64,000 nt of DNA from Bacteroidia bacterium (GTDB lineage Bacteria; Bacteroidota; Bacteroidia; AKYH767-A; OLB10). The stretch spans positions 2,522 through 66,521 of the forward strand of contig JAEUTH010000004.1 of the NCBI GenBank assembly GCA_016788165.1. Reading direction: 5' to 3'. Positions 11,979 to 29,497 of the stretch are shown piece by piece; the stretch's first letter is position 1, and every line of letters starts with the position of its first letter. The translations under genes were made by a program, and so were the position numbers. A model generated the notes under the pieces. That model ran no database searches. It had not been told where the DNA came from and saw only the letters and a list, made by a program, of their open reading frames with translations.

Positions 11979-12019
11979 TTTGTTGTATCTTAAAATATAA
12001 TATATCTAAACTTAAATGG

Positions 12020-12808
12020 TTATTTGGCACGTACTATTAAAAGGGTACCCAGTGCAATAAGTACAGTTGTAACTGAGGTAACTATACTAACTTGTGGTGC
12101 AGCATCGGCCCAACGCTTGTTTTTTAATTGGCGCACATATATTACATCATCTTGTTTCAAATAAAACAACTTCGAATAAAGTGTTTTATTATCGGTAAGG
12201 TCAATAACAAATTCTTCTTGACGGCCATCAATAACACGAATTACTTTTACATCGGTACGACTACCGTATTTGGTTAAATCACCGGCCAATGATAGCGCCT
12301 CTAACAGTGATATAGATTCGTAGTTAATAAAGTACATACCGGGTTTTGCCACTTCGCCTAAAACGGATATTTTAAAGCTTAGTTTTTTTACCACCACTAC
12401 TGGATTGGCTACATACTTTTTGTATCGTTTTGATATTTCTTGTTTTGCCTGATCAACCGTTAAACCCGCAACTGGCACCGGGCCGATGAGTGGCAGTACC
12501 AAATCGCCATTATCTTCAACTGTAAAACCGCGCTCGTAAGCAGGGCGGTTATCCATGGTTCTATCTTCTAACTTTGAACCAATGCCGGGTAAGGCGTCAG
12601 GGTTTTCGGTATAAACCAAAACGTTTACGATATCTTTTTTATAGATAATCATATCGGGCCTGATAGGCGTAGCCAAACTGGTTTTGTCTTTGCTTTTGCC
12701 TTCAGTCTTATCTTGAAAATAAACTATCTTTTTTTGAGGGATACAGCCTGCCATTATTAAAAAGACAATGCTGATGAGCGCCAACGATAGGGAGTTGAAA
12801 AACTTCAT
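12020..12808 (-). CDS. polysaccharide export protein (Wza/SLBB family)
   Basis: Lipoprotein signal (LIMAGC), a Poly_export-like N-terminus and an SLBB domain. Directly downstream of the Wzc-like gene. Confidence 0.75.
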   Translation of the reverse strand: MKFFNSLSLALISIVFLIMAGCIPQKKIVYFQDKTEGKSKDKTSLATPIRPDMIIYKKDIVNVLVYTENPDALPGIGSKLEDRTMDNRPAYERGFTVEDNGDLVLPLIGPVPVAGLTVDQAKQEISKRYKKYVANPVVVVKKLSFKISVLGEVAKPGMYFINYESISLLEALSLAGDLTKYGSRTDVKVIRVIDGRQEEFVIDLTDNKTLYSKLFYLKQDDVIYVRQLKNKRWADAAPQVSIVTSVTTVLIALGTLLIVRAK

Positions 12809-15360: not shown

Positions 15361-17667
15361 ATGAAACTTAGATTTTTACTTGCCTTACTTTTTATCACTT
15401 TTTACACCACACAAATTTGGGCACAGTATGCCAATGTGCGTGGTTTCTTGTATGAAAAAGCTACAGGCGAACCGGTAATTTTTACCACTATTTTTTTAAA
15501 GGGGACCCAATTGGGTGCTGCTACCGATGTAAACGGATATTTTAGCATAACCAAAATACCGGCAGGCAATTACAAAATTGTAGTATATAGTATGGGTTAC
15601 GATTCGTTAGAAGAAAACATAACCGTGAGCGCCAATGAAATTGTGAGTAAAAAATATTATTTAAATAAAACCGCTATTAATTTAAAAACGGTAGATATAT
15701 CGGCCGAGCGTACCGAGTATAAAACCGATGTAAAAATGTCGGTAACCAAAGTAACGCCAAAAGAAATCAGTAAAATACCATCGGTAGGAGGCGAACCCGA
15801 TTTGGCGCAATACCTGCAAGTGGTACCCGGTGTAATATTTAGTGGCGACCAAGGTGGTCAGTTATACATACGTGGTGGTACGCCCATTCAAAACAAAGTG
15901 CTGTTAGATGGTATGGTAATATATAATCCATTTCACAGTATTGGTTTGTTTTCGGTTTTTGATACGGATATTATTGCTAATGCCGATGTATTTACGGGTG
16001 GTTTTCCGGCACAATATGGCGGCCGCATTTCGGCTGTAATGGATGTAACCACACGCGATGGAAATAAAAAACGGTTAGCCGGAAAGCTTTCCGTTAATCC
16101 ATTTGCCAGCAAACTTACTTTAGAAGGGCCGCTTATTAAACAAAAAGAAACAGGTGGTTCGTCAACATCATTTGTGGTGAGTTATAAAAACTCTTACTTA
16201 AACAAAACATCTGATGTGCTGTATAAATATGTAAATGACGAGGCAGGCTTACCTTACAGTTTTAACGATATTTATGCTAAGGTTAGCATTAATGGCACCA
16301 ATGGGAGCAAGCTAAATGTTTTTGGTTTTAACTTTAATGATAAAGTTGACTTTACGCCCATCAGCGAATTTAACTGGAAGAGCACCGGTTTTGGAACAAA
16401 GTTTATTGTTGTGCCAAATGGTTCGAGTACATTGATGGATGGCGTGTTTGCATATTCAAAATATAAAATGCAATTAAAAGAAGCTGATGATAAACCACGC
16501 ACCAGCGAAATTGGTGGCTTTAATATGGGGTTAAATTTTACCTACTTTTTTGGGCAGGATGAATTGAAGTACGGTTTAGAGGTATTGGGATTTAAAACCG
16601 ATTTCGAATTTTATAATGCAGCCGGCAATCGTTTAGGGCAAGAAGAAAACACTACAGAGTTTGGCACTTATTTAAACTACCGGAAAGTTGCAGGCAAGTT
16701 TGTAATTCAGCCAGGTTTGCGTTTACACTATTACTCTTCATTAACCGAGTTGGCTATAGAGCCACGCTTTAGTGCTAAATATAACGCTACTGATTTTTTA
16801 CGCTTTAAATTGGCTGCCGGTATTTACAAGCAAAACTTTTTAAGTGCCACAAGCGATAGAGATGTAGTAAATTTCTTTTATGGATTTTTATCGGCTCCCG
16901 AAAACTTACCCGCTAATTTTAACGGCAGTAAGGTTGACTCGCGTTTGCAACAAGCAAACCATTTTATTTTAGGTACTGAGATTGATTTACCACATCATTT
17001 TTCGGTTAATATTGAAGGATATATTAAAGATTTTGCTCAGGTAATAAATGTAAACCGCAATAAAATTTATGATGATGTTGGCGCTAATAGCGATAAACCG
17101 GATGAGCTAAAAAAGGATTTTATTGTTGAAAATGGAATTGCCAAAGGCATTGACTTTAATTTAAAATATGAATACAAAAAAGTATATCTGTGGTTTGTTT
17201 ACTCTATCGGTTTTGTTGATAGGTTTGATGGTAACGATGAGTATATGCCCAGTTTTGACAGACGCCACAATGTAAATATTGTTGCCAGTTACACCTTTGG
17301 TAAAGATTTACTTTGGGAGCTTAACTCGCGCCTTAATTACGGTTCGGGGTTTCCTTTTACACCTACGCAAGGTTTTTATCCTTACCAAAATTTTTCGCAA
17401 GGTGTTAATACAAATTACAACAGCAGTAATGGCCAGTTAGGTATTATTTATGGTGAGTTAAATGCCAACCGTTTACCCGATTATGCACGCTTAGACCTAA
17501 CACTTAAACGCACCTTTGTATTAAGCAGTAGAAGCAATTTAGAGGCTACTGCCAGTGTAATTAACTTATTAAACCGGCAAAATATTTTTTACTTCAACCG
17601 TGTTACCTTTCAACGCGTTGATCAGCTCCCTATATTACCGGCATTGGGAGTTAGCATGACTTTTTAA
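15361..17667 (+). CDS. TonB-dependent outer-membrane receptor with N-terminal carboxypeptidase-regulatory-like (CarbopepD) domain
   Basis: Signal peptide MKLRFLLALLFITFYTTQIWAQ. CarbopepD_reg fold (VRGFLYEKATGEPV...). Plug domain and a large beta-barrel ending in an aromatic C-terminus (GVSMTF). The ORF is open from 15271, but the ATG at 15361 gives the proper signal peptide. Confidence 0.8.
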   Translation: MKLRFLLALLFITFYTTQIWAQYANVRGFLYEKATGEPVIFTTIFLKGTQLGAATDVNGYFSITKIPAGNYKIVVYSMGYDSLEENITVSANEIVSKKYYLNKTAINLKTVDISAERTEYKTDVKMSVTKVTPKEISKIPSVGGEPDLAQYLQVVPGVIFSGDQGGQLYIRGGTPIQNKVLLDGMVIYNPFHSIGLFSVFDTDIIANADVFTGGFPAQYGGRISAVMDVTTRDGNKKRLAGKLSVNPFASKLTLEGPLIKQKETGGSSTSFVVSYKNSYLNKTSDVLYKYVNDEAGLPYSFNDIYAKVSINGTNGSKLNVFGFNFNDKVDFTPISEFNWKSTGFGTKFIVVPNGSSTLMDGVFAYSKYKMQLKEADDKPRTSEIGGFNMGLNFTYFFGQDELKYGLEVLGFKTDFEFYNAAGNRLGQEENTTEFGTYLNYRKVAGKFVIQPGLRLHYYSSLTELAIEPRFSAKYNATDFLRFKLAAGIYKQNFLSATSDRDVVNFFYGFLSAPENLPANFNGSKVDSRLQQANHFILGTEIDLPHHFSVNIEGYIKDFAQVINVNRNKIYDDVGANSDKPDELKKDFIVENGIAKGIDFNLKYEYKKVYLWFVYSIGFVDRFDGNDEYMPSFDRRHNVNIVASYTFGKDLLWELNSRLNYGSGFPFTPTQGFYPYQNFSQGVNTNYNSSNGQLGIIYGELNANRLPDYARLDLTLKRTFVLSSRSNLEATASVINLLNRQNIFYFNRVTFQRVDQLPILPALGVSMTF

Positions 17668-17700
17668 AATTTATACTCATTAATTTTACAATGCAAAAAC

Positions 17701-17734
17701 AAAGGCTGATGTAAAACATCGGCCTTTGTTTTTT
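17701..17734. terminator. bidirectional intrinsic terminator between convergent genes
   Basis: Stem AAAGGCTGATG / CATCGGCCTTT with loop TAAAA. Followed by GTTTTTT on the + strand and preceded by an A-run, which gives a T-run on the - strand. Confidence 0.7.
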
Positions 17735-17759
17735 GGATATAGTTTTAATAGTTACGGTT

Positions 17760-20700
17760 TTATTTTTCACTCATGTGTTCCACACCATCCCAATCGTTAC
17801 CAACACCTTCAACCATAAAACGCGCTGCATTTTGCAAGTACCTTTTTGCCGATTTATCGTCAGGATTTATATCTAACAACTGACGTAATGAAAGCGCTGC
17901 TTCGGCAAAACGTTTATTAAAGTAATCGGTAATGCCACGATTAAAAACATCTAATGTTTGCTGTTTAAGTTGTAACACCTGATCATCATCGGCACTAAAC
18001 ATTTCGAAAACCGACATTACCTCCTGCTTACCTTTTACTTTAATACGACCTAAATAACGGAACTGAAACAATTCTAAATTCCCCAAAGCCTGGTATAGGT
18101 TTTCGCTTAATACCACATTGGCTCCAAATATTTTTGTTAGCCCTTCTAACCTCGAAGCAATGTTTACAGCATCGCTTAATACATTGGCATCGTGCCTTTG
18201 ATTATCACCAATAATACCCATCATTATTGGGCCTTTGTGCAAACCAATGCCCACAGCAATAGGCTGTTGCTGGTTGCTAACACGCTCCTTATTGTACGAT
18301 TCAATTTCCTTTAAAATAGCAACTGCGGCTTGTAATGCGCTTTCGGGTTCGCCCTGAAAGAGTGCAATAAAACCATCTCCAAAATAATGATTTATAAAAC
18401 CGTTGTGGCTTTGTATTACCGGCCCAACACGTTGCAGGTAGGCATTGATAAATGCAAAATTTTCTTCAGTAGTCATGCCTTCGCTCATTGCCGAGTATGC
18501 ACGTATATCGCAAAACATCACAATCATATCGCGTTTAATATGATCGCCCAGTTTTACCTCTAAAATGCTTTGGCGGCCAATAGCATTTATAAAATCGTGG
18601 GGAACAAAACGTTGGTAAGCCTGATTTAATTCAAATTGCTTTTTATATAGTGTTGCATTTTCGATTGAGACGGACATTTGGCTGGTAAGCAATTCTAAAA
18701 TACCCAATCGCTCGCTTGAAAACGCATCGGCATTTGAACGATGTTCAACATAAATAATTCCGTTAGTGGCGCCTTTGTGCGATAAGGGCAGGCACATATA
18801 ACTTGCCGGATTATAAGATTTAAAATATTCGTCACGTTCGAATATTTTAATCGAACTGTTTACAAATGAAAGCACTTGCGTACGTGTTCGAATTACATAA
18901 TTTATTACCGATACGGGTATATTGGTAGCCATATCAATGTCAGCCGATTCCATGGTGTGTATGTCTGCATCTTCAACGTTAAAATCGGCTTCGATGCGCC
19001 ATTTATTATTGTAATTTAAAACCAATACAGCCCTTTGTCCACCGGCATTTTCAATTACGATACGCAAAATTTTTGAAAGCAGTTTCTCATACACAATTTC
19101 TTCGCTTAATGCATGCGAAGCTTTCATAACACTTTTCATATCAAAGCCTGCCAGGTCGGCTGTGTTGATACTGCTGTAAAGCGTACTGAATATATCGGTA
19201 CGTTTTGTTGATACCGTGTTTTTATTTACGAACGGATATTTATTATCAATAGCTTTCGCTAAACGCTGATAGCCTAATTTATCATAAATATATCGGGCAC
19301 GTTCTAAATGGGGTTGTGCATAAATTTTATTACTCATGCTAATCCAAAACGCTCCGGCCTTTTGATGCGCTAATGCTACCTCCCTGTCGAAATCATATAA
19401 CTCGGCCGATTCAATTGCCTTACCATAAAATTCAATTGCTTTTAAAATATCGCCTTTTACGCGCATGTATTCTGCTTCAACTAAAAAGTATTTGTGCTCA
19501 AAATTAGAAGCATTATGTGTACTCCAGTTTTGTAGCTGTTCTTTAAAAGTATTAATGTTGTTCCAGTAGGTTTCAGTTTCACTTTCGGCAGCGCTTTCAA
19601 TCATACCTAAAAGAGTAAGCGCGTAAAGCATATTAAATGTAGCATGCGAAGGTACATTGCCAGCTATTACACCGGGCAACCCTGCAACAACCTGCAAGCA
19701 GTATGAAGCTTCGGCTAAGTTGCCGTATAAATAATACGCTTGCGCTTTGTATAAATGAAATATGGTAGAGCCGTAAGCATCTTTGGCATCTTTGCAATAT
19801 TGCAACAAGGCAGCTCCTGATTTATTGGGTAAATCGAAACTGGTTTCGGCATTGGTTGCACCTGCTAGATTTGACATTACTAATTGCAATGCTTGCAACG
19901 AGTCGTGTGCTAAATCGTGCTTTATTTTTTTAGTAAACTCCAACGCATCGGGTATGCGCAAGAGCAACGTTTGCAGCGATTCGTTACCTTGAAAATAGGA
20001 GTTAAAAAATGGATGAAAACTGGTATAGCCTGCAAAAATAAGTTCGCCACAGTCAATACTAACCTGATAATACTCGGGGTTTAGTTTTGCAGTTTCTGAA
20101 ATGTGTTTAACCCAAGGCGTATTATAATTTGTAAATAAATGGCCTGAACGGCTGAGGTTACGTGGCGATTCCTTTTTAAATTTTTCGGCCAAACGTTTAC
20201 TAAGTGTGGCAGCCGGGTAAGCATATTTGTAATTGCCCATTATAAAAAACAACAGGCCCAATTCAGAAAATGCATAGCCACCTTGCGGTGATAACCCATG
20301 CGTAATGGTTAAGTTTATTTTTAATAACACTTGCAAAATCCACATATTGGTTTCGCCTGTTACATAGGTTGGTGGCGATAGATTATCCAAAATGTTTATG
20401 GTACTTAAAATACCTTGATCTTGTATGGTTTGCTTATCGAAAACCGACTCAACACCATGGGCTTCGAAATAGGAAATTATTTTGCCCATTTCGTCAGGTA
20501 TTAATGCAGGGCAATCGTCTTTTTGCGGAAATGTAAAGTTAAGCAACTGCAACCCTTGCCGTGCCGATTCGATAGCTTCATAGTATTGCGTGCTGTTGTT
20601 TTGATTTTGCATCAGCATAAAATATATGCTGCTTTTTTCGGCTGCTGTTTGTGCACGCTCTATGCAATTTAATAAACTGTTTTGCGATTGCTCTAAATTA

Positions 20701-23081
20701 CCATTCAGGTAATCAATTTCGGCATGGTTGGTAAACAGTTTTAATGCAAAGTCATAATCGCTTTGCCAAATAGCATCGCCTGCTAATTTTTGTGCTGCAT
20801 CAATATATACCGATGCTGATTTGTAGGCACTGCTGTTTTTTGCTTGTATGGCTGCTTGCAAATTAAGCTGCGCCAACTTGTCTTTTTCGGTTTGGATATT
20901 AATTAATGTTATGCCTTCGTTACAATGGTTTACGATATCGAATATAACATCGTCCGTATCGGGATGATTGCTTAAAAGCAACCGTCCTATTTGCAGATGT
21001 ACGGCCGCTTGCCTGGTAGCTGGCATTAATGTAAAACTTGCTTGTTGTATTCTGTCATGTGCAAATTCGAATTTGGCTTGTTGGCTTACCTCAATATGTT
21101 CAATCAGTTTATAATTTTCGTTTAACGGCAATACCAAACCCTCTAACACTGCCGGCCATAAGTCATTAAGTGTATCGGCAGCAGGCTTATCATATAATGT
21201 TGACAACAGATTTATATCAAACAACCCACCAATGCAGCTGGCTAATTGTAATACATGTTGGGTTGGCAAGGGTAGTTCGCTAATTTTTGCAATTAAAAAA
21301 TCAATTACGTTATCGGTAATTTTTCGCTTTTTAATTTCATCAATGTTTACATCCCATAAATTTTTTTCTTGGTTAAACACGATTAAATCGAAATGATAGA
21401 GCGATTTTAAAAACTCTATTGTAAAAAATGCATTACCCTGTGTTTTCGAAAATATTAATTCTGTTAAGCTTAATGTAATTTTATCTTCAGTGTGCAGTAC
21501 ATCTTTTACAAGTTGAAAAATGTGTTCGGCTAATAATGGTTTTAATTGAATTGACTTTACAATTGCTTTATCCTTAATAGCAGCATCAATTGTATGTAAC
21601 AACGGGTGGCCCGGTGTAACTTCGTTATCGCGGTATGCGCCAATTACCATCAGGTGCGGCAAACTTAAATCACATACCATGGTTTTAATAAGATTTAGCG
21701 AACCCACATCGGCCCATTGCAAATCATCAATAAAAAAAACAAATGGATGCTCGGGTTGCGCTATTGCGCGAATAAAATTTACAAATGTTATATTGAAACG
21801 ATTGAGTGCCTCCATAGCATCTAACTTGGGTGCTTCCTCTTGCTCGCCAATAATATCAGCCAAGGCAGGTGCTAATTCAATTAAAATGCTGCCGTTTTCG
21901 CCTACACCTTGTTGAATCAGGTTTTGCCAGTACTGTAGTTTAGCCTTGCTTTCTGTTAGCAACAATCTGCAAAATTCATTTATAGCAAGTGTAAATGCAT
22001 AGTATGGGATATTGCGTTGATACTGGTCAAATTTGCCTTCGGCAAAATGGCCCCTTCGCTCAGTTATGGGCTTATACAACTCGCCAATGAGAACTGATTT
22101 ACCTATGCCTGAGTAACCTGAAACTAAAAACCACTCTGTACTACCTTGACTAACTGCATCAAACGATTTTAGTAAGACATCTATTTCTTTATCGCGGCCA
22201 TAAAGTTTTTGTGGAATTTGAAATTTTCCGGAAACATCGTGCTGGCCAATTTTAAAATCTATATGCGTTTCACCGTTTTCTATTTGACGGATGCAATAGG
22301 CTAAATCGTGCTTCAGACCTACTGCACTTTGATAGCGGTCTTCGGCATTTTTTGCCATCAACTTGATAATAATATTTGAAACAGCAACGGGTATTTTTGC
22401 ATTGACCAGGTGTGCCTGCGGTATTGACTTGGCAAGTTGATAATGTACCAGTTCTAACGAGTCGCTGGCTATAAATGGCAATTGACCGGTTAGCGATTTG
22501 TACATGGTAACACCCAATGAATATAAATCGCTGCGGCTGTCTATTTTACGGTTTACCCTGCCTGTTTGTTCGGGCGACATGTGCGATAGTGTGCCCTTAA
22601 CCCTATCGGGATTTCCTAAATTTGTATTTATTAAATCAATATGTGTGCTAATACCAAAATCAATTAGTACGGGTTGTTGTGTTTGCGAATCCCATAATAT
22701 ATTTCGTCCATTAATATCTTTATGTATAATGCCCTGATTGTGAATTTGCGTTAATATATCGGCTATTGTTACATAAATTTTTAATTGCTCAAGCACTGAA
22801 ATTTGCTGACTTAAAATTTTATTTTCAAGTGTATCGCCTTCAATAAATTCGAACCCAATGGCCAGTTTGTTTTCAAACTTAGTTGTAAACAAGGCTTTTC
22901 GTACGCCTGATATTTTTAAGTCTTTAGTAAAATCGTATTCATTATTAAAACTTAAAATCTGATCGGGGTTTGGTGTAAGCGTACGTAAAACCTTTAATAC
23001 GTGACGGTTACCTTTGCTATCAGTAACATCATAAATGGATGATTCTTCGCTTTCGTATATTATCGTTTGTTTTTCGCTCAT
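17760..23081 (-). CDS. giant multidomain signalling protein: Ser/Thr protein kinase, STAND/AAA-type P-loop NTPase, TPR-like helical region, GAF, class III adenylate/guanylate cyclase
   Basis: 1773 aa. Kinase motifs HKDINGRNILWD, DFGIS and SPEQ. Walker A GYSGIGKS and Walker B FFIDDLQWAD. A long alpha-helical repeat region. A GAF-like segment at about aa 1180-1330. C-terminal cyclase homology domain (MIVMFCDIRAYSAM...GDGFIALF...GIGLHKGPIMMGIIG). Confidence 0.85.
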   Translation of the reverse strand: MSEKQTIIYESEESSIYDVTDSKGNRHVLKVLRTLTPNPDQILSFNNEYDFTKDLKISGVRKALFTTKFENKLAIGFEFIEGDTLENKILSQQISVLEQLKIYVTIADILTQIHNQGIIHKDINGRNILWDSQTQQPVLIDFGISTHIDLINTNLGNPDRVKGTLSHMSPEQTGRVNRKIDSRSDLYSLGVTMYKSLTGQLPFIASDSLELVHYQLAKSIPQAHLVNAKIPVAVSNIIIKLMAKNAEDRYQSAVGLKHDLAYCIRQIENGETHIDFKIGQHDVSGKFQIPQKLYGRDKEIDVLLKSFDAVSQGSTEWFLVSGYSGIGKSVLIGELYKPITERRGHFAEGKFDQYQRNIPYYAFTLAINEFCRLLLTESKAKLQYWQNLIQQGVGENGSILIELAPALADIIGEQEEAPKLDAMEALNRFNITFVNFIRAIAQPEHPFVFFIDDLQWADVGSLNLIKTMVCDLSLPHLMVIGAYRDNEVTPGHPLLHTIDAAIKDKAIVKSIQLKPLLAEHIFQLVKDVLHTEDKITLSLTELIFSKTQGNAFFTIEFLKSLYHFDLIVFNQEKNLWDVNIDEIKKRKITDNVIDFLIAKISELPLPTQHVLQLASCIGGLFDINLLSTLYDKPAADTLNDLWPAVLEGLVLPLNENYKLIEHIEVSQQAKFEFAHDRIQQASFTLMPATRQAAVHLQIGRLLLSNHPDTDDVIFDIVNHCNEGITLINIQTEKDKLAQLNLQAAIQAKNSSAYKSASVYIDAAQKLAGDAIWQSDYDFALKLFTNHAEIDYLNGNLEQSQNSLLNCIERAQTAAEKSSIYFMLMQNQNNSTQYYEAIESARQGLQLLNFTFPQKDDCPALIPDEMGKIISYFEAHGVESVFDKQTIQDQGILSTINILDNLSPPTYVTGETNMWILQVLLKINLTITHGLSPQGGYAFSELGLLFFIMGNYKYAYPAATLSKRLAEKFKKESPRNLSRSGHLFTNYNTPWVKHISETAKLNPEYYQVSIDCGELIFAGYTSFHPFFNSYFQGNESLQTLLLRIPDALEFTKKIKHDLAHDSLQALQLVMSNLAGATNAETSFDLPNKSGAALLQYCKDAKDAYGSTIFHLYKAQAYYLYGNLAEASYCLQVVAGLPGVIAGNVPSHATFNMLYALTLLGMIESAAESETETYWNNINTFKEQLQNWSTHNASNFEHKYFLVEAEYMRVKGDILKAIEFYGKAIESAELYDFDREVALAHQKAGAFWISMSNKIYAQPHLERARYIYDKLGYQRLAKAIDNKYPFVNKNTVSTKRTDIFSTLYSSINTADLAGFDMKSVMKASHALSEEIVYEKLLSKILRIVIENAGGQRAVLVLNYNNKWRIEADFNVEDADIHTMESADIDMATNIPVSVINYVIRTRTQVLSFVNSSIKIFERDEYFKSYNPASYMCLPLSHKGATNGIIYVEHRSNADAFSSERLGILELLTSQMSVSIENATLYKKQFELNQAYQRFVPHDFINAIGRQSILEVKLGDHIKRDMIVMFCDIRAYSAMSEGMTTEENFAFINAYLQRVGPVIQSHNGFINHYFGDGFIALFQGEPESALQAAVAILKEIESYNKERVSNQQQPIAVGIGLHKGPIMMGIIGDNQRHDANVLSDAVNIASRLEGLTKIFGANVVLSENLYQALGNLELFQFRYLGRIKVKGKQEVMSVFEMFSADDDQVLQLKQQTLDVFNRGITDYFNKRFAEAALSLRQLLDINPDDKSAKRYLQNAARFMVEGVGNDWDGVEHMSEK

Positions 23082-23088
23082 GGATTAA

Positions 23089-24498
23089 TTATTTACCACG
23101 TAAAAAAGTGTCGATTACAATTTTAAAAATAGAAGGCCGGCCTTTGGCGCGTAGCGCTTCTAAATCTTTTTTGGCTTCGGCATCACCAAAACCATCGGCA
23201 ATGGTAAAATGCTCAGTACCCCATGTTGCTTGCGAGCTTACTACCTTTACCATAAGCGCATGCATACGTGCAGCAAGTTCGGGGCAATTGGCACGTGATT
23301 TTTGATAACGTATATAGGACCAGGTTGCAAAAACAAAATCAATTAAATTATCAGCAATTACCATCAATATTAAAAAGAACTTGCTCTTTTCCTGCATGGG
23401 TACTTTGTGTACGTTTTCGAAAAAAGTTTCATCAATGTCGCTGTTATATCTGCGTATGATGGCATATACATAACTTATTTTGGGCAAGCCCGAAAACTCT
23501 TTTATAAAACTAACCAACGGTGCCGATAATGCCGGTGCAATTGGGTTTATAAATGGTGTACCATCGGCATTTTTTGGGTAAAACTGTACTTGATATATTT
23601 TTTCCTGCAAAGCTTTGCCTTCGGCATAAGTTGTTGGATTAATTTCATCATGCAAACCTAAGGCGCGTCCGTATAAATGCCAGGTATAATAATAATCGTT
23701 TAATACTTCATCATCCGGCTTTTCGCCCGAACTGATAATGCCGTCTATAACTTCCTGACTAAACGTATTTATGGCAAACAACATATCTTGTTGATTAATT
23801 GGTGCGCCCCATTTTTCCTTTTGCCAAACATTGCTGTTCCAAAAATCTGTGCTTATTTCTACGTCCTCTTTTATACTGATTTTTTTTTCTTCTACAGCCG
23901 ATTTTAAATTTATACGTGCTCTTATCATAGCATGCACCAATCGTAATTTCTGAATACTTTTTATGGCGCTGCCATTGGGCTCAAATGCATTTGGATCCAT
24001 TACATCTAAAACAAAATCCATAGTAGCTAATATGCGCCTGTGTGGGTATTGAGGCAACATACGTGTGCTACCTAAAACCTGTGTACTGTTGTATGCTGCA
24101 TATTGTTTTAGCAATGAGCGTACAGCCAAAATCATGGTACCCTCTATGGCATAATTATTAAAAAAAAAACATGCATTTTTTATCCGTTGTTTTTGCGCAT
24201 CCGTAAAATTAAAATGACTGGTATCGGCAAAATAATTATTCAAAATGGTTACAATGTTTGCATGCTCACCGCTATCCGTGCTTTTTTGCATTCTTTGTGT
24301 TAAATCTGCAAACTTTCTTTCATCAATTGTATCGCTGTTTTTGCTTATAGAAGCTAAAATTTGGTAGGCTTGATGTCCATAAGGAGATGCAACCAAAGCC
24401 AATGCTACTTTATCGGCCTCAGGGTCTTGCATTTGCCTGAATGTTGCAAACCATTTATCGAAATCAGGGTGTGATAATATGGGGGTTGGATTAGTCAT
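23089..24498 (-). CDS. hypothetical protein, possibly an MpaB/DUF2236-like all-helical oxygenase-family protein (tentative)
   Basis: 469 aa. Ends 8 nt upstream of the kinase-cyclase gene on the same strand, so likely co-transcribed. No confident motif beyond H/R-containing helices (KLRLVHAMIRARIN). Confidence 0.4.
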   Translation of the reverse strand: MTNPTPILSHPDFDKWFATFRQMQDPEADKVALALVASPYGHQAYQILASISKNSDTIDERKFADLTQRMQKSTDSGEHANIVTILNNYFADTSHFNFTDAQKQRIKNACFFFNNYAIEGTMILAVRSLLKQYAAYNSTQVLGSTRMLPQYPHRRILATMDFVLDVMDPNAFEPNGSAIKSIQKLRLVHAMIRARINLKSAVEEKKISIKEDVEISTDFWNSNVWQKEKWGAPINQQDMLFAINTFSQEVIDGIISSGEKPDDEVLNDYYYTWHLYGRALGLHDEINPTTYAEGKALQEKIYQVQFYPKNADGTPFINPIAPALSAPLVSFIKEFSGLPKISYVYAIIRRYNSDIDETFFENVHKVPMQEKSKFFLILMVIADNLIDFVFATWSYIRYQKSRANCPELAARMHALMVKVVSSQATWGTEHFTIADGFGDAEAKKDLEALRAKGRPSIFKIVIDTFLRGK

Positions 24499-24616
24499 AG
24501 ATGCTTACAATTATTGGTTTTTAAACAATAGGGGTATTATTGTAATGGTAGGCAGTACGTGTTTCAAAAAGCGTTGGTTTATTTTAACGGTTGTGTTAAT
24601 GCAGGCTAAAGATTAA

Positions 24617-25480
24617 TTAATTGTTTTTAGGTTTAGTGCCGGTATAAAACATATACCGCCATAAGTTTTGTTTATAGGCTTTATACTGATAATAGGTTGA
24701 CCAGGTGTTTGCTGTTTGGGTTCGGTTTCTAAATCCCAGCCATTGGCTTATATAGGTTATGGGTAAGCCCGGAAAAAATGAATAATACAGGCGTTTTATA
24801 CTTTTTATAACCTGTGCTGTTACATCTTTTTGTGTACAATTTACAAATCCACAATTGCTTAGTTTCTTATAAAACTCATCAACATCGGCATATTGTTTTA
24901 TAGCCCAGGTGCTTGTCCATTTTTGCATTAATAGATGTTGCCGGGTGTTGGGCTGTACCTTATAATTAAAAAAATCGGCTACCACCAACTTACCACCGGG
25001 TTTTAAAATACGATAGGCCTCTTTTATAAAATCGGCTTTGTCAAAAGCATAACAAACGCTTTCGATAGCCCACACTACATCAAAAGTATTATCGGCAAAA
25101 TGTGTGTTTAAATAGTTTTGTTTTTCGAAATGTGATAGGTGTGCTACACCGCATTTTATTGCATTACTAAAACAGGTTTGTACTTGCTTATCGCTAAGCG
25201 TAATGCCTGTAGTTTTGCAACCGAAATTTTTTGCTAAAAAAACAGAAGAGCCTCCCACACCGCAACCAGCATCCAACACATGCATATCGGGCATCGGGTT
25301 TACAAGTTTGGCTACTTGTACATTCATGTTATTTAATGCTGCCCTCAGATTTTTGGTGTTGCTATCCCAATAACCATAATGCATACACATGTGTGTATTT
25401 AGGTGCCATACTATTTCATAATCAATTTGACAGTTGTCGTAATAGTTTACAATTTCAACTTCGTTGATTTGTGGCTGCAT
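24617..25480 (-). CDS. class I SAM-dependent methyltransferase
   Basis: Motif I VLDAGCGVGGSSVFLA, motif II/III (ILKPGGKLVV) and a Rossmann fold. 287 aa. Confidence 0.8.
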   Translation of the reverse strand: MQPQINEVEIVNYYDNCQIDYEIVWHLNTHMCMHYGYWDSNTKNLRAALNNMNVQVAKLVNPMPDMHVLDAGCGVGGSSVFLAKNFGCKTTGITLSDKQVQTCFSNAIKCGVAHLSHFEKQNYLNTHFADNTFDVVWAIESVCYAFDKADFIKEAYRILKPGGKLVVADFFNYKVQPNTRQHLLMQKWTSTWAIKQYADVDEFYKKLSNCGFVNCTQKDVTAQVIKSIKRLYYSFFPGLPITYISQWLGFRNRTQTANTWSTYYQYKAYKQNLWRYMFYTGTKPKNN

Positions 25481-25674
25481 GCTGGTAGGTGGTGAAAAGG
25501 GTAGTGGTGCGTGGTGCTAAAGTAAATAATATAAATTGAGAATATGGTTGTTTATTTTAATACGATACAATATTTTTCGCATCGTTGTTAATTATAAGTT
25601 TTATTTATTTCATTTGTTAACCACCTAAAGCGATTATTTTACCCATCAAAAAAACAACCCCATAATGCAAACCA

Positions 25675-26307
25675 ATGTTTGTAATTCCCCAACATTGGTT
25701 CAGCGTATCAAAAAAGACTATGGCCCAATTCGCAGAAGCAGAATCGTTTATCAGTAACAAGTTAAAAAACGAACTCTCACCTAAACTTACCTACCACAGT
25801 TATTATCATTCAATTGATGTATTAGAAGCAGCCCTACGTATAGCCGAAAACGAAAATGTTACTGGTGAGCCACTGGCTCTGTTACGTGTAGCTATAATGT
25901 TTCACGACTCAGGCTTTTTACATACTTATAAAGACCATGAAGAATTAGGTTGTGCTTTAGTTCGCAAGCATTTGCCTGACTTTGAATTTACACCGGAGCA
26001 AATTGAGTTGATATGTGGTATGATTATGTCAACAAAAATACCACAACAAGCAAGCAATGTTTTACAGCAAATTATTTGTGATGCTGATTTAGATTATTTA
26101 GGGCGTAATGATTTTTACCCAATTGGTTTAACACTTTTTGAAGAGTGGAAACAGTTTTTAAACATTCAGTCGGAAGAGGAGTGGAATAATATTCAACTAA
26201 GTTTTTTAAGACAACATTTTTACCATACGAACTATTCGCGCGCAAAACGGCAACAATTAAAGCAAACACATTTGGAACAAATTGAAAAGATTGTTGCTGC
26301 TTATTAA
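25675..26307 (+). CDS. HD-domain metal-dependent phosphohydrolase
   Basis: H...HD...D pattern (YHSIDV...IMFHDSGFLH...CDADLDYLGRNDF). No GYP motif. An alternative start lies at 25720. Confidence 0.7.
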   Translation: MFVIPQHWFSVSKKTMAQFAEAESFISNKLKNELSPKLTYHSYYHSIDVLEAALRIAENENVTGEPLALLRVAIMFHDSGFLHTYKDHEELGCALVRKHLPDFEFTPEQIELICGMIMSTKIPQQASNVLQQIICDADLDYLGRNDFYPIGLTLFEEWKQFLNIQSEEEWNNIQLSFLRQHFYHTNYSRAKRQQLKQTHLEQIEKIVAAY

Positions 26308-26308
26308 G

Positions 26309-26752
26309 CTATTTGCTTAACATTTTCTCATTCAGGTTACGCAAGCGTTTACTCAAAATCCGTATAACGCCACGTGCAATTTCGGGTTGTGTATCTAATA
26401 GTTCAAAAAAAGGATCCTGGTCGATACGTAATAAAAAACAGGGTTTAGATGTAGTTGCAGAAGCTGAGCGTGTTTCGGTATCGAGCAGCGATAGCTCGCC
26501 AAAAAATTCTTTATCGTTAAGTACAGCCAGTGTTTGATTGCCTTTATTAATTTGAACTGTACCATGATAAATTATGTACATGCAATTACCGATATCACCT
26601 TCATTAAATATCAATACATTTTCATCCAATTCAATTTCGTGTAGTAAATGCGCAACCTGGGCCAGTATATTTTCAGGTGTATCTGAAAATATACTAATAG
26701 ATTTTAGTAGCAGTACTTTTTCAATCAATAATAAATTTCCGTTTTCCATCAT
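26309..26752 (-). CDS. stand-alone cyclic-nucleotide-binding (cNMP) domain protein
   Basis: 147 aa with a phosphate-binding cassette (FFGELSLLDTETRSASATT) and the beta-roll of CAP-family cNMP-binding domains. No HTH domain. Starts 6 nt after the stop of the upstream TLC-HEAT gene. Confidence 0.85.
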   Translation of the reverse strand: MMENGNLLLIEKVLLLKSISIFSDTPENILAQVAHLLHEIELDENVLIFNEGDIGNCMYIIYHGTVQINKGNQTLAVLNDKEFFGELSLLDTETRSASATTSKPCFLLRIDQDPFFELLDTQPEIARGVIRILSKRLRNLNEKMLSK

Positions 26753-26758
26753 ACGAAT

Positions 26759-29497
26759 TTAATGGGCTATAGCCTGCAACTTATGTACAATTGTTTGTTG
26801 CAGCAATCTATCGGCATGAGTCATTATTTGCTTCAAGCGTAAATTATAGTGTGTTGTTTGATCTTTACTAAGTGTATAAACTGCAACTGCTTTTGTCCAG
26901 CTATTGAATGTATCTTCCGGGGCGTTCAGTATTTGTTTGATTACCGTTTGTGGTTGTAATTGAACGTGAAAATATTTTTGCATTTCGTTAAGTTTAGTTT
27001 CTATGCTAACATTATCAAACAATGCAATAAACTTTTGTGCATGACTTTTATTTAATGTTACATCAATTACCTCCATTGCATTGGCTATTACGTTAGGCTT
27101 ATCAATTACATAAGCATGCTTTACTCGTAATATATTTTCAGTGTTGTAAAAAAATGTAAACATATAAAGCAACTGCGATCGTACATCGTTAAGCTCAATG
27201 GTTAGTGCATTATGTAATAGTTTGTTTTGCTGCATTGCTACCTGCTGTATCTGAGAAATCAACATTGATGCAAATAAAAATTTGTTATCAATTATTTGCA
27301 AAAACTGCTTATCGGTTTGGGCTGATTTGTAACCTAATACGTATAATGAAAAAACGATGTCGTGCAATAATGGTGTTCGTTCATTTGCCAATGTTGTAAG
27401 TACCGGTACACTATAAGTATGGTTAGCTTTTGCAATAACGGCAATTAATTTTTTTTGCGTTGGTAGCGATAGTGTTTTGCTTGAAATAGCCTCGGCAATA
27501 AGTTTTACGGCAGCACCACCTTGCATACTTAAGCTTTTCATAACGGAGGCCGTGTACTTAGTTTGTTCGGATAAGCTAATAAGTTTGTGTACAATTTCGG
27601 CCCGGTGACAAACTCCCGCTGCATTTATAGCTAAAGCTAAAATTTCTTCATCGGTGCTTTGCAAGGCTTCCATAACTTCATTACTAAAATGTGTGTTGCC
27701 CGATTGTTGTACAATAGTTAATGCAGCTATTAAAGATTGCTTACCTTGAGTAAATAAAACATGCAACTGTTTATGTGCCTCATGTTGTAAAAGTTCATTA
27801 CCAAGCATGCCTTTTAAACTTGCAATTTGCCACTGCTGTTCTTTATGCCAGCTGAGTTGGGTTATGTTGTTCCTCGACAAAGCATAAATGGCTGTTATAC
27901 ATCGTTGCTTAAGGGCAATACTTTGGGTTGTTGCTGCAACTTGGCTTATATCAGCCAACAATTCGTGGGCATGCAAACGCTGGCTTAATTTAACCGCTTC
28001 AAACTGAACAGGCATCGCAGTATGATTTAATGCCTGTTTTAAAATTTTATACGTTGATGGCTGTAACTCCTTAATTAAACTTAAAATAACCAATGCATCA
28101 TTTTCGCTGCTTTGCGGCATGCGCTGCGTTAAAAACGATAGGGTTGTTGCATCATTGATGTTGGCGTCCTTATTATTTAAATACCTGTTGTGTACAGCAA
28201 TAATTAAAGCCTTTATGTATGCCTTATCTATTATTAAAATCCAACAAATAGAAAGAAACAACAAAGCTGTTAACAGGTAACATAGCAATTGCAAGTCAAC
28301 AAAATGTTCCAAATCTATCATCAGATATAAAAACACTCCGCAGAAAAAAAATGCAAACGGATCCATAATGCCTTTCAGTATGTTATGCGCCCTAAGGCGT
28401 ACATTTGCTTGCAATGGTTGCATTATTGCTAAAAAAACGGGAGTTTGTATTGCCGACCTTAATACATCGTTTAATATTGACAGAAGCCCAAAAACCAATA
28501 GTACTTTTAAAGTACCTACACCTGACAATTGCATTAAAAATACGGGTATAAACAACAGCGACAATAAAACAGGAGTTATTAGTAATGCCTTTGTAATACC
28601 TAAGTAATTAATAATCCGATTTGTAAAAAACAATTTAACCACAATAGCAACACCCCGGCTAAATGCCAGAAACCAACCAATATATGTAGCCAACATTGCA
28701 TTATTGGTGAGCCTGTTTTTTACTTCGGCATAAAACGTAAAATTAATTACAGTAAAAGTGCTCATTATTAAAAACGATAAAATAGCCATGTGAAAAACAA
28801 GGTTATTTTGGAAAAAGTTTTTTACTATTTGTTTTAAGCTCTCGCCAGGTACCGCTTTGTTGTTCCGGTGTGCATGCGCTACCACTACATTCAGATGGCC
28901 GTACTTGTTAAGCCGGTACCAGTATCGTAGTGATATCAATACTAATATGGCGCCTACTACCAATAAGTTTTGTGCACCTAAAAAAGGAACAATTATAACT
29001 GCCGATGAATAGCCGATAAATTTTGCTGGTATATCGCCTGCACTTATTAAACCAAACAGGCGTTTGCTTTGCCTAACATCAAAAAGCAAGGATGCAAGGC
29101 CCCAAAAATCTAAACTGTTTAAAAGGTATAGTACATTATACCAAACCAACATGGCAAAGTAAAACCAAACACTTCCGGTAAAAGGCAACATGGCCCTGAA
29201 TGCTAAAATGCTTAATGCAATAAATAAATTGATGTAGAGTATTAAATATTTAATTCGAAAGGCATGCTCCAACTTGCTATAAATAAAGCCGGTAATCCAT
29301 AACACAAAAGCCGAAGCTATAAGCACCTTAGGTAATTCGACAATTGAAAACTTTTGCAAAAACCAGCTAAACGCTGCCGTAAAAAACAAAGCAATGCCTG
29401 CGCCCGAAAAAAATTGCTGAAAAAACAATTGTCTTACTAACCACCATTCTGTTTGGCGTACTTGTAAAAGGTTAAGCAGTTTGGTTTTCGAAATCAC
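26759..29497 (-). CDS. TLC-family (Npt1/Npt2 ATP:ADP-antiporter-like) 12-TM transporter domain fused to a C-terminal HEAT/ARM-repeat domain
   Basis: 912 aa. The N-terminal half of about 430 aa is polytopic, with TLC-like motifs (DFWGLASLLF; RQSKRLFGLISAGDIPAKFIGY). Compare Rickettsia Tlc1 ELWG..LLFWQF and [27 protein letters not shown]. The C-terminal half of about 480 aa is all-helical HEAT-like repeats. Confidence 0.7.
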   Translation of the reverse strand: MISKTKLLNLLQVRQTEWWLVRQLFFQQFFSGAGIALFFTAAFSWFLQKFSIVELPKVLIASAFVLWITGFIYSKLEHAFRIKYLILYINLFIALSILAFRAMLPFTGSVWFYFAMLVWYNVLYLLNSLDFWGLASLLFDVRQSKRLFGLISAGDIPAKFIGYSSAVIIVPFLGAQNLLVVGAILVLISLRYWYRLNKYGHLNVVVAHAHRNNKAVPGESLKQIVKNFFQNNLVFHMAILSFLIMSTFTVINFTFYAEVKNRLTNNAMLATYIGWFLAFSRGVAIVVKLFFTNRIINYLGITKALLITPVLLSLLFIPVFLMQLSGVGTLKVLLVFGLLSILNDVLRSAIQTPVFLAIMQPLQANVRLRAHNILKGIMDPFAFFFCGVFLYLMIDLEHFVDLQLLCYLLTALLFLSICWILIIDKAYIKALIIAVHNRYLNNKDANINDATTLSFLTQRMPQSSENDALVILSLIKELQPSTYKILKQALNHTAMPVQFEAVKLSQRLHAHELLADISQVAATTQSIALKQRCITAIYALSRNNITQLSWHKEQQWQIASLKGMLGNELLQHEAHKQLHVLFTQGKQSLIAALTIVQQSGNTHFSNEVMEALQSTDEEILALAINAAGVCHRAEIVHKLISLSEQTKYTASVMKSLSMQGGAAVKLIAEAISSKTLSLPTQKKLIAVIAKANHTYSVPVLTTLANERTPLLHDIVFSLYVLGYKSAQTDKQFLQIIDNKFLFASMLISQIQQVAMQQNKLLHNALTIELNDVRSQLLYMFTFFYNTENILRVKHAYVIDKPNVIANAMEVIDVTLNKSHAQKFIALFDNVSIETKLNEMQKYFHVQLQPQTVIKQILNAPEDTFNSWTKAVAVYTLSKDQTTHYNLRLKQIMTHADRLLQQTIVHKLQAIAH

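Follow-up and report, generated by a model that had tools for sequence, protein, structure and literature searches.

A putative STAND signalling hub with kinase-like, GAF and class III cyclase domains encoded beside haem oxygenase-like and methyltransferase genes in a Bacteroidia bacterium

The closest known relatives of the system reported here have been described in genome surveys. Cyanobacterial 'dual protein kinases' (cbSTKIII; HstK/Alr2258 and Pkn40/Pkn41) combine a kinase, a GAF domain and a histidine kinase, and Tery_2857, which lies within the same kinase clade, was catalogued in 2007 as a kinase with GAF and CYCc domains (PMC2176072). We analysed a 1773-residue protein encoded in a 64,000-nucleotide stretch of a Bacteroidia metagenome-assembled genome (GenBank assembly GCA_016788165.1, contig JAEUTH010000004.1, positions 2,522 to 66,521 of the forward strand; hereafter the window), together with its neighbouring genes (Table 1). 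The protein, a signal-transduction ATPase of the STAND class, probably acts as a signalling hub with cyclic-nucleotide output: a cytoplasmic signalling protein that joins a PknK-like front half to a GAF/class III cyclase back half and is encoded by the last gene of a conserved three-gene operon. Such an architecture has been seen in earlier surveys of genomes, but members from Bacteroidota and Ignavibacteria are set apart from their relatives by the partner operon and by mostly non-canonical cyclase pockets.

Proteins of the cbSTKIII group and the 1773-residue protein have in common a chassis of ~1480 residues (KD kinase, AAA_16, solenoid and GAF), with 35–47% identity per domain. Most cbSTKIII proteins end in HisKA and HATPase_c, whereas the protein described here, with a KD kinase (HKD) and a GAF domain, ends in a cyclase and thus falls outside that group. 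The cyanobacterial cyclase versions differ in turn, carrying canonical Lys/Thr or Lys/Asp base-specifying pairs and lacking MpaB or methyltransferase neighbours. For HstK and Pkn40/41 only expression data exist, and our literature search found no study on the input, mechanism or output of any chassis member.

Three other groups share parts of this layout. In Mycobacterium tuberculosis PknK (Rv3080c), a kinase with a canonical Gly-rich loop is followed by AAA_16 and then by a TPR/MalT-like region; the front half of the 1773-residue protein (kinase, NTPase and TPR-like region) is PknK-like, whereas PknK has neither GAF nor cyclase. A class III cyclase is likewise combined with an AAA_16 STAND module in Rv0386-type cyclases (cyclase-AAA_16-TPR-HTH) and in the TOMM kinase/cyclase fusion family TIGR03903, but there the cyclase lies N-terminal to the NTPase, opposite to the order seen here, and no GAF domain is present; against TIGR03903 the protein scored 128.7 bits versus a cutoff of 705.75, with a match confined to the NTPase region (residues 293–711). 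Finally, PH0952 (6MFV) and MalT have the same NOD-arm-TPR sensor layout, but with only 12% identity and with DNA-binding output in place of kinase and cyclase.

Domain architecture and distribution of the chassis

Four Pfam domains scored above their gathering thresholds within one open reading frame (ORF), in the order that the initial annotation had proposed from the letters alone (kinase, STAND NTPase, GAF, cyclase), and the kinase and cyclase assignments both have the support of profile hidden Markov models (Table 1). The motifs that it quoted are in place as well, namely HKDINGRNILWD at residues 120–131, DFG at 141–143 and SPEQ at 169–172 in the kinase-like domain, and Walker A GIGKS at 325–329 and Walker B FVFFIDD at 447–453 in the NTPase. 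An ORF of 1773 residues does not occur by chance in DNA of 37% G+C, and the absence of any predicted transmembrane (TM) helix indicates a cytoplasmic protein. A fusion produced by misassembly, about which the annotation had been cautious, is ruled out by a large full-length family and by identical copies on 16 contigs, which belong to ENA and Logan assemblies made from different samples (at least four independent assemblies). The protein is deposited at NCBI as MBL7925358.1, 'AAA family ATPase [Bacteroidia bacterium]', and fragments of it are labelled there 'serine/threonine-protein kinase PknK, partial'. More than 100 homologues of 1760–1810 residues carry the same Pfam set; they are spread over Bacteroidota (Spirosoma, Algoriphagus, Saprospiraceae), Ignavibacteria, Cyanobacteria and Chloroflexota.

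Assignment to the STAND class is supported by the agreement of sequence and fold. Across 121 aligned homologous sequences, the Walker A residues G322, G325, G327 and K328, the Walker B residues D452 and D453, and R484 are invariant. The P-loop pattern GxxxxGK[ST] is thus present as G322-x-x-G325-x-G327-K328-S and the hhhhDD pattern as F450-x-D452-D453, and the arm that follows the core holds a conserved K546-T-x-G-N-A-F-F motif. In an AlphaFold2 (AF2) model of residues 280–1320, built from a 40-sequence alignment (pLDDT 87.5, pTM 0.77), an alpha/beta NTPase is followed by helical and winged-helix modules and these by a solenoid with ~30 helices. When this model was compared with the PDB using Foldseek, the first match was the STAND-TPR protein PH0952 (6MFV; E 1.3e-9 over 863 columns), followed by CED-4 and Cdc6/Orc1 and then by many TPR proteins. 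The TPR region of the initial annotation holds at the level of fold, as a TPR-like solenoid, but not as a Pfam assignment, where the match stays below threshold (TPR_CHK1 at 1163–1280, 21.6 bits versus a cutoff of 27). This solenoid is presumed to be the sensor and autoinhibitory domain. Overall, the parts of the nucleotide switch (Walker A, Walker B and Arg) and those of the cyclase (two metal-binding Asp, Asn and Arg) are intact and conserved.

The chassis itself is common. At E ≤ 1e-30, a full HMMER scan with the 1041-residue NTPase-solenoid core returned 9,562 cluster representatives. The 150 top-ranking ones, proteins of 1,100–2,900 residues, align over the whole ~1,000-residue core from about residue 285. 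A genome scan using the family-specific peptides PEQTGR[MV]NR and FxHDR[IV]QQA found at least 598 loci; among the best 80, 66 match only residues ~8–1480 and 14 extend into the cyclase, and the two of the 66 non-cyclase loci that were checked (L035 and L017) end in HisKA/HATPase_c. These HisKA/HATPase_c paralogues, together with Tery_2857 and the 9,562 representatives, mark the architecture as an output-domain swap on a common, catalogued chassis, and place the kinase-STAND-GAF chassis among the most abundant large signalling proteins of cyanobacteria and Bacteroidota.

Two features of the protein ends were observed in passing. The motif MSEK occurs at both ends (17763..17774 and 23070..23081), and the tail W-x-G-V-E-x-M-[ST]-E-K is conserved family-wide. 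An 88-residue ORF at 23039..23305 (+), antisense over the junction with the upstream gene, is without support and probably a chance occurrence.

Table 1. Features of the window discussed in the text, with residue ranges of the 1773-residue protein
Feature	Coordinates	Strand	Basis
Whole ORF, 1773 aa, ATG start	17760..23081	-	Predicted cytoplasmic, no predicted TM helix
Hanks-type kinase-like domain, residues 14-259	22305..23042	-	Pfam Pkinase E 1e-25
STAND NTPase core AAA_16, residues 292-480	21642..22208	-	Pfam E 3e-37; Walker A K328, Walker B D452/D453, R484
Helical and winged-helix 'arm' of NOD, residues 481-712	20946..21641	-	AF2 secondary structure; invariant columns
TPR-like alpha-solenoid, ~30 helices, residues 713-1281	19239..20945	-	AF2 pLDDT mostly >85; Foldseek TPR matches
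GAF domain, residues 1332-1473	18663..19088	-	Pfam GAF E 3.5e-9
Conserved helical linker between GAF and cyclase, residues 1474-1518	18528..18662	-	Family consensus LNxAYQRFVPxxFLxxLG
Class III nucleotidyl cyclase, residues 1519-1690	18012..18527	-	Pfam Guanylate_cyc E 2e-15; alignment to OaPAC 5x4t
C-terminal helical tail, residues 1700-1773	17763..17984	-	Faint single TPR_2 match 1713-1742; conserved end
MpaB/Lcp-family haem oxygenase homologue, 469 aa	23089..24498	-	PF09995 48.9 bits versus cutoff 23
Class I S-adenosylmethionine methyltransferase, 287 aa, CMAS/Methyltransf_11-like	24617..25480	-	Profile matches; conserved linkage
HD-domain hydrolase, divergent, 210 aa	25675..26307	+	Generic HD match; near operon in 3 lineages
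Stand-alone cNMP-binding protein, 147 aa	26309..26752	-	Pfam cNMP_binding E 1.6e-18; cassette FGELSLLDTETRSASA
912-aa protein, 10 predicted TM helices, helical C-terminal half	26759..29497	-	Split counterpart of L007 fusion

Kinase-like and cyclase domains

The best solved match of the N-terminal domain is PknB (E 6e-22), whose HRDVKPAN aligns with HKDINGRN of the 1773-residue protein. Most residues that define a Hanks-type kinase are present: the beta3 Lys (K30), the alphaC Glu (E48), H120 with the catalytic D122, N127, D141-F-G and, as the APE equivalent, SPE ending at E171 (with P170) vary little or not at all, and Thr or Ser occupies the activation-loop position T164 across the family. Under the Lys/Asp/Asp rule commonly used for kinases, the domain could be active. 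Two departures from the canonical pattern make it possible, though we incline against it, that the domain is instead a non-catalytic, pseudokinase-like nucleotide-binding regulator and that the cyclase is the only enzymatic output. The site of the Gly-rich loop GxGxxG contains no Gly, reading I-Y-E-S-E-E-S here and I-Y-E-S-x-N-S in the family consensus, and the catalytic-loop Lys of HRDxKxxN is N124 here and is replaced in most of the 121 sequences (Asn in 86, Thr in 26 and His in 4, with Lys kept in only 5). The near-invariance of K30, E48, D122, N127, D141 and SPE, the conservation of T164 and the Lys/Asp/Asp criterion nevertheless argue for catalysis, and the 2007 survey of cyanobacterial kinases, in which all cbSTKIII members are 'KD' kinases, found subdomain I to be often divergent (PMC2176072).

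The cyclase domain has its best solved sequence matches in the class IIIb photoactivated enzymes OaPAC and bPAC (E 4e-21). Alignment to OaPAC identifies the metal ligands D1525 and D1569, the phosphate-binding R1629 and the transition-state residues N1640 and R1644; of these, D1525, D1569, N1640 and R1644 align with OaPAC D156, D200, N273 and R277, so that one chain carries the set expected of a homodimer-competent enzyme. The OaPAC numbering (D156, D200, D270, N273 and E279) was checked against PMC11533990. Every sequence that covers the domain retains D1525, D1569 and R1644; a single sequence has Lys in place of R1629, and 14 have Thr in place of N1640.

The base-specifying positions are those four residues before the second metal Asp and seven before the Asn, following the spacing of mammalian K938/D1018/N1025; they correspond to H1565 (codon 18387–18389) and N1633 (codon 18183–18185). 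Adenylyl cyclases carry Lys with Asp (Thr in class IIIb) at these positions, and guanylyl cyclases carry Glu with Cys, Ser, Thr, His, Ala or Gly (PMC4215837). The pair H1565/N1633 follows neither rule, the first position being His rather than the Lys of adenylyl or the Glu of guanylyl cyclases. In the test suggested by the initial annotation, Lys/Asp would point to ATP and Glu/Cys to GTP; the His/Asn pair matched neither of the two options. In the comparison with OaPAC and bPAC, the metal Asp, Asn and Arg residues align, but His/Asn stands in place of OaPAC Lys196/Thr266.

Different clades of the family carry different pairs. Lys/Thr and Lys/Asp occur in members from Cyanobacteria, Chloroflexota, Leptospirales and Myxococcales; His/Asn and His/Ser characterize the clade of the 1773-residue protein (28 sequences with pairwise identity down to 34%); Gln/Gly, Ser/Gly and Met/Gly are found in a Saprospiraceae-type clade and Ser/Ser in a further Bacteroidota clade. 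At least eight forms of the pair (K/T, K/D, H/N, H/S, Q/G, S/G, M/G and S/S) were therefore observed in one family in which the metal Asp residues are fixed. Because the pair of the 1773-residue protein fits neither rule and varies by clade, the cyclic-nucleotide product cannot be read from the sequence. A strict association of the operon described below with unusual pockets was considered and ruled out, since one member (P0023) combines Lys/Asp with the operon and the Ser/Ser clade lacks it. Within the operon-linked clade, nature has produced a range of cyclase pockets (Lys/Asp, His/Asn, His/Ser and Gln/Gly), with Ser/Ser in a partner-less sister clade, and this series amounts to a ready-made experiment on nucleotide choice by class III cyclases.

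Such a pocket raises the prospect, which we judge unlikely, that the cyclase makes a product other than cyclic AMP (cAMP), whether cyclic GMP, a pyrimidine cyclic nucleotide or a mixture, and that the operon is a specialised second-messenger circuit. The replacement of both Lys/Asp(Thr) and Glu/Cys by H1565/N1633, with His kept in 28 sequences down to 34% identity, would fit this prospect, as would the diversity of at least eight family pairs around fixed catalytic residues. In the cytidylate cyclase EaPycC, moreover, the equivalent of the Lys (metal Asp minus 4) is Arg142 and sets specificity (PMC11224242). PycC models of PADLOC also match the domain with a score comparable to that of the general Pfam cyclase model (67 versus 57 bits), but these matches reflect shared class III ancestry. 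Mycobacterial Rv0386, a STAND-linked cyclase, has a Gln/Asn pair and is still mainly an adenylyl cyclase. P0023, with its canonical Lys/Asp, sits in the same methyltransferase-MpaB operon, which indicates that the operon needs no unusual pocket, and the cyclic nucleotide (cNMP)-binding protein encoded nearby has an RSA-type cassette and CRP as its best match. Mapping the pyrimidine-cyclase determinants of PMC11224242 onto the cyclase of the 1773-residue protein revealed no diagnostic difference.

Upstream of the cyclase, the GAF domain and the helical linker follow an arrangement also found in OaPAC/bPAC and in the GAF-regulated CyaB1/CyaB2, in which the sensor lies directly before the cyclase and is joined to it by a helical linker. 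Judging from its sequence, residues 1474–1518 may form a cyclase transducer-like element. The sensor here differs in being a single GAF domain that lacks the NKFDE signature of cNMP binding, which by eye is not conserved in the family GAF consensus. Sequence matches of this domain in the PDB were only weak, to GAF domains of sensor kinases, and too weak to indicate a ligand.

Operon partners and proposed mechanism

On the minus strand, the gene order from 5' to 3' is methyltransferase, MpaB-like gene and, last, the gene for the 1773-residue protein (hereafter the large gene). The initial annotation had called the directly upstream partner overlapping and uncharacterised. In the window it does not overlap, a 7-nucleotide spacer separating it from the ATG of the large gene (the overlap of 4 nucleotides occurs in locus L007), and Pfam, alignment and fold identify it as a homologue of the MpaB/Lcp-family haem oxygenases. 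Its AF2 model (pLDDT 88.3, pTM 0.90) matched only Lcp (5O1L; E 1.4e-7, TM 0.65) and, more weakly, t-anethole oxygenase in Foldseek. R155, T159 and H189, invariant in 40 MpaB homologues, align to R164, T168 and H198 of LcpK30 (5o1l), of which H198 is the proximal haem ligand; the distal Lys167 of Lcp is Ala158 here. Haem binding is accordingly predicted for the partner from PF09995 membership, the Lcp-like fold and the pocket Arg/Thr/His, features held in common with Lcp, fungal MpaB' and t-anethole oxygenase at ~16% identity. All MpaB/Lcp relatives characterised so far contain haem b and act by cleaving C=C bonds (PMC6311187, PMC5522427, PDB 8S1J). The partner has one hydrophobic helix (residues 374–392), and no secretion signal was seen in it; its role may be that of a sensor and not of an enzyme. 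The nearest solved relatives of the methyltransferase are MitM, a RebM-like enzyme, a glucose O-methyltransferase and phosphoethanolamine N-methyltransferases; as these are assorted small-molecule methyltransferases, its substrate cannot be deduced from them.

Linkage of the three genes was assessed in 12 distinct Bacteroidota/Ignavibacteria loci whose large proteins are 33–83% identical overall: relatives at 83, 63, 55, 53, 49, 46, 47 (which carries Lys/Asp), 40 and 38%, together with two loci from metagenomes and another found by way of its MpaB protein. The metagenome scan with a single protein gave only two loci. An MpaB gene lies upstream of the large gene on the same strand in 12/12 loci and directly adjoins it in 11, the methyltransferase gene standing between them in Spirosoma aureum; a methyltransferase gene accompanies the MpaB gene in 11/12, the twelfth being cut by a contig end. 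Beyond these three genes the flanks of the 12 loci are otherwise unrelated. The MpaB subfamily comprises 78 homologues, and 12 further members were found on contigs size-matched to contigs with homologues of the large protein. Neither the MpaB nor the methyltransferase partner was detected (tblastn, 1e-5) at the best 80 of the at least 598 genome-scan loci. This obligate-looking partnership with a haem oxygenase and a methyltransferase, both candidate input sources, gives the Bacteroidota clade a first experimental handle, to which the pocket series adds a second.

Several loci depart from the common arrangement. In Spirosoma aureum, a cultured carrier (CP050063.1, about 8.0185–8.0238 Mb; L008 1817–7891), DUF5995 forms a fusion with the MpaB domain, the genes run MpaB, methyltransferase and large gene, and a gene encoding Peptidase_C14 with nSTAND1 lies just upstream of the operon. 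On a long JGI contig (L095, 9350–14599), the large gene is split into more than 10 small ORFs beside intact genes for the methyltransferase and MpaB, a pattern that reflects either assembly indels or a decaying gene. The lone MpaB homologue of L096 (8001–9341; 38% identical) is followed by a 1.3-kb stretch with no called gene. A scan of 17500..26400 for promoters and terminators gave counts at chance level, with a tool that does not cover Bacteroidota promoters.

We propose a mechanism modelled on better-described STAND proteins. At rest, the NTPase core would hold ADP and be locked by the solenoid, as in PH0952 and MalT; an input would free this lock, allowing ADP to be exchanged for ATP and the protein to multimerise, by analogy with STAND-TPR proteins, for which ADP-locked and ATP-multimerised states are documented (PMC6468293). 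As dimerisation is required to complete class III active sites, which lie at the interface of two chains, multimerisation would act with the GAF domain and linker to turn on cyclic-nucleotide synthesis. Of the candidates for producing or relaying the input, the linked oxygenase and methyltransferase are, we infer, the strongest; the input may be their product or their direct binding to the solenoid. Direct binding would resemble that of MalY, Aes and MalK to MalT, a protein controlled by enzyme partners such as MalY (PMC10427625). The product would most likely be cAMP, to be read by the nearby cNMP-binding proteins (the 147-residue protein with the 10-TM protein as its partner), and the HD protein would perhaps break it down; the kinase-like domain may provide a second output or act in autoregulation or feedback. 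If this ordinary course holds, the protein would be one more cAMP-producing sensor.

A number of observations weigh against a signalling hub of this kind. The pair H1565/N1633 fits neither adenylyl nor guanylyl cyclases, and the kinase lacks both the Gly-rich loop and the catalytic-loop Lys. cNMP-binding and HD neighbours occur in only ~5/12 loci, the MpaB homologue of L096 occurs without methyltransferase and large gene, and co-transcription is deduced from gene spacing only. Oligomerisation, ligand, product and kinase activity are all inferred, no member of the architecture having been characterised.

The direction of signalling between the large protein and its partners can also be read in reverse, with the oxygenase and methyltransferase as downstream targets, phosphorylated or cNMP-regulated by the large protein, rather than as the input source. 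The tight linkage in 12/12 loci gives no direction and is compatible with this, as is the small size of the MpaB subfamily (78 homologues), which tracks the large protein; in enzyme-sensor operons, on the other hand, the upstream gene would more often be the one for the protein that makes or binds the signal, and we consider the reversed order improbable. Still more doubtful is a fully self-contained small-molecule circuit, in which an alkene-derived (isoprenoid- or lipid-like) signal would be made or destroyed by the oxygenase and methyltransferase, or O2 or redox state sensed by them through haem, and read by the solenoid or GAF domain, with the His/Asn (or Gln/Gly) pocket emitting a non-canonical cyclic nucleotide to a linked cNMP-binding membrane protein.

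Neighbouring genes and the defence question

The proposed receiver of the signal lies close to the operon. The 147-residue protein, which consists of a cNMP-binding domain and nothing else, has an FGE...RSA cassette and CRP as its best NCBIfam match and is likely to be a local receptor. Its gene is 6 nucleotides from that of the 912-residue protein, and in L007/L094 homologous parts are joined in one 1107-residue MFS-HEAT-cNMP_binding protein (L007 11399–14722, minus strand) that is 24% identical to the 912-residue protein; the pair in the window is therefore read as the split form of this fusion. Split or fused, the pair links a transporter-like membrane protein to cyclic-nucleotide sensing. 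Genes for cNMP-binding proteins lie nearby in the window, L005, L007/L094, L092 (a Crp-type regulator) and L095, a distribution that fits an active cyclase with local receptors. The HD-domain protein may be a phosphodiesterase; its family search returned a generic HD match only.

The initial annotation also raised a possible role in defence, and an antiviral system, whether built on a STAND sensor of the Avs type or on a Pycsar-like cyclase acting through a cNMP-binding membrane effector, is the least probable of the readings considered, with very little chance of being correct. STAND NTPases are used in defence, PycC models match the cyclase region (up to 3.2e-19), a cNMP-binding gene and its 10-TM partner lie 3 kb away in the window and some relatives, a caspase-nSTAND1 gene lies near the operon in Spirosoma and toxin-antitoxin-like genes lie nearby in L090; yet the PycC matches reflect generic class III homology, PADLOC returned no family on the NTPase-solenoid region (280–1320), only generic domain matches on the kinase (PD-T4-6, mad6) and, among five neighbour proteins, only a generic mad2 match for the operon methyltransferase, no Avs structure was among the top 50 Foldseek matches, and Pfam detected no nuclease, protease, TIR or pore effector domain in the protein. 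Pycsar PycC enzymes consist of one or two nucleotide cyclase domains (PMC11224242), whereas the cyclase here is embedded in a protein of 1773 residues. The flanks consist mostly of housekeeping genes, both partners are enzymes of metabolism and the family resembles a large expansion of signal-transduction paralogues. The defence reading is set aside whether or not the cyclase proves to be an ordinary one.

The flanking genes include those for AnmK, a TonB receptor, polysaccharide export and an acyl-CoA dehydrogenase, and type IX secretion system (T9SS) sorting domains and CarboxypepD_reg-TonB receptors are encoded near the large gene. A few genes downstream, at 9582..12808 on the minus strand, lies a pair for polysaccharide export, made up of a Wzz/GNVR tyrosine-kinase-type chain-length regulator with a Poly_export/SLBB protein, that is syntenic in all copies of the contig.

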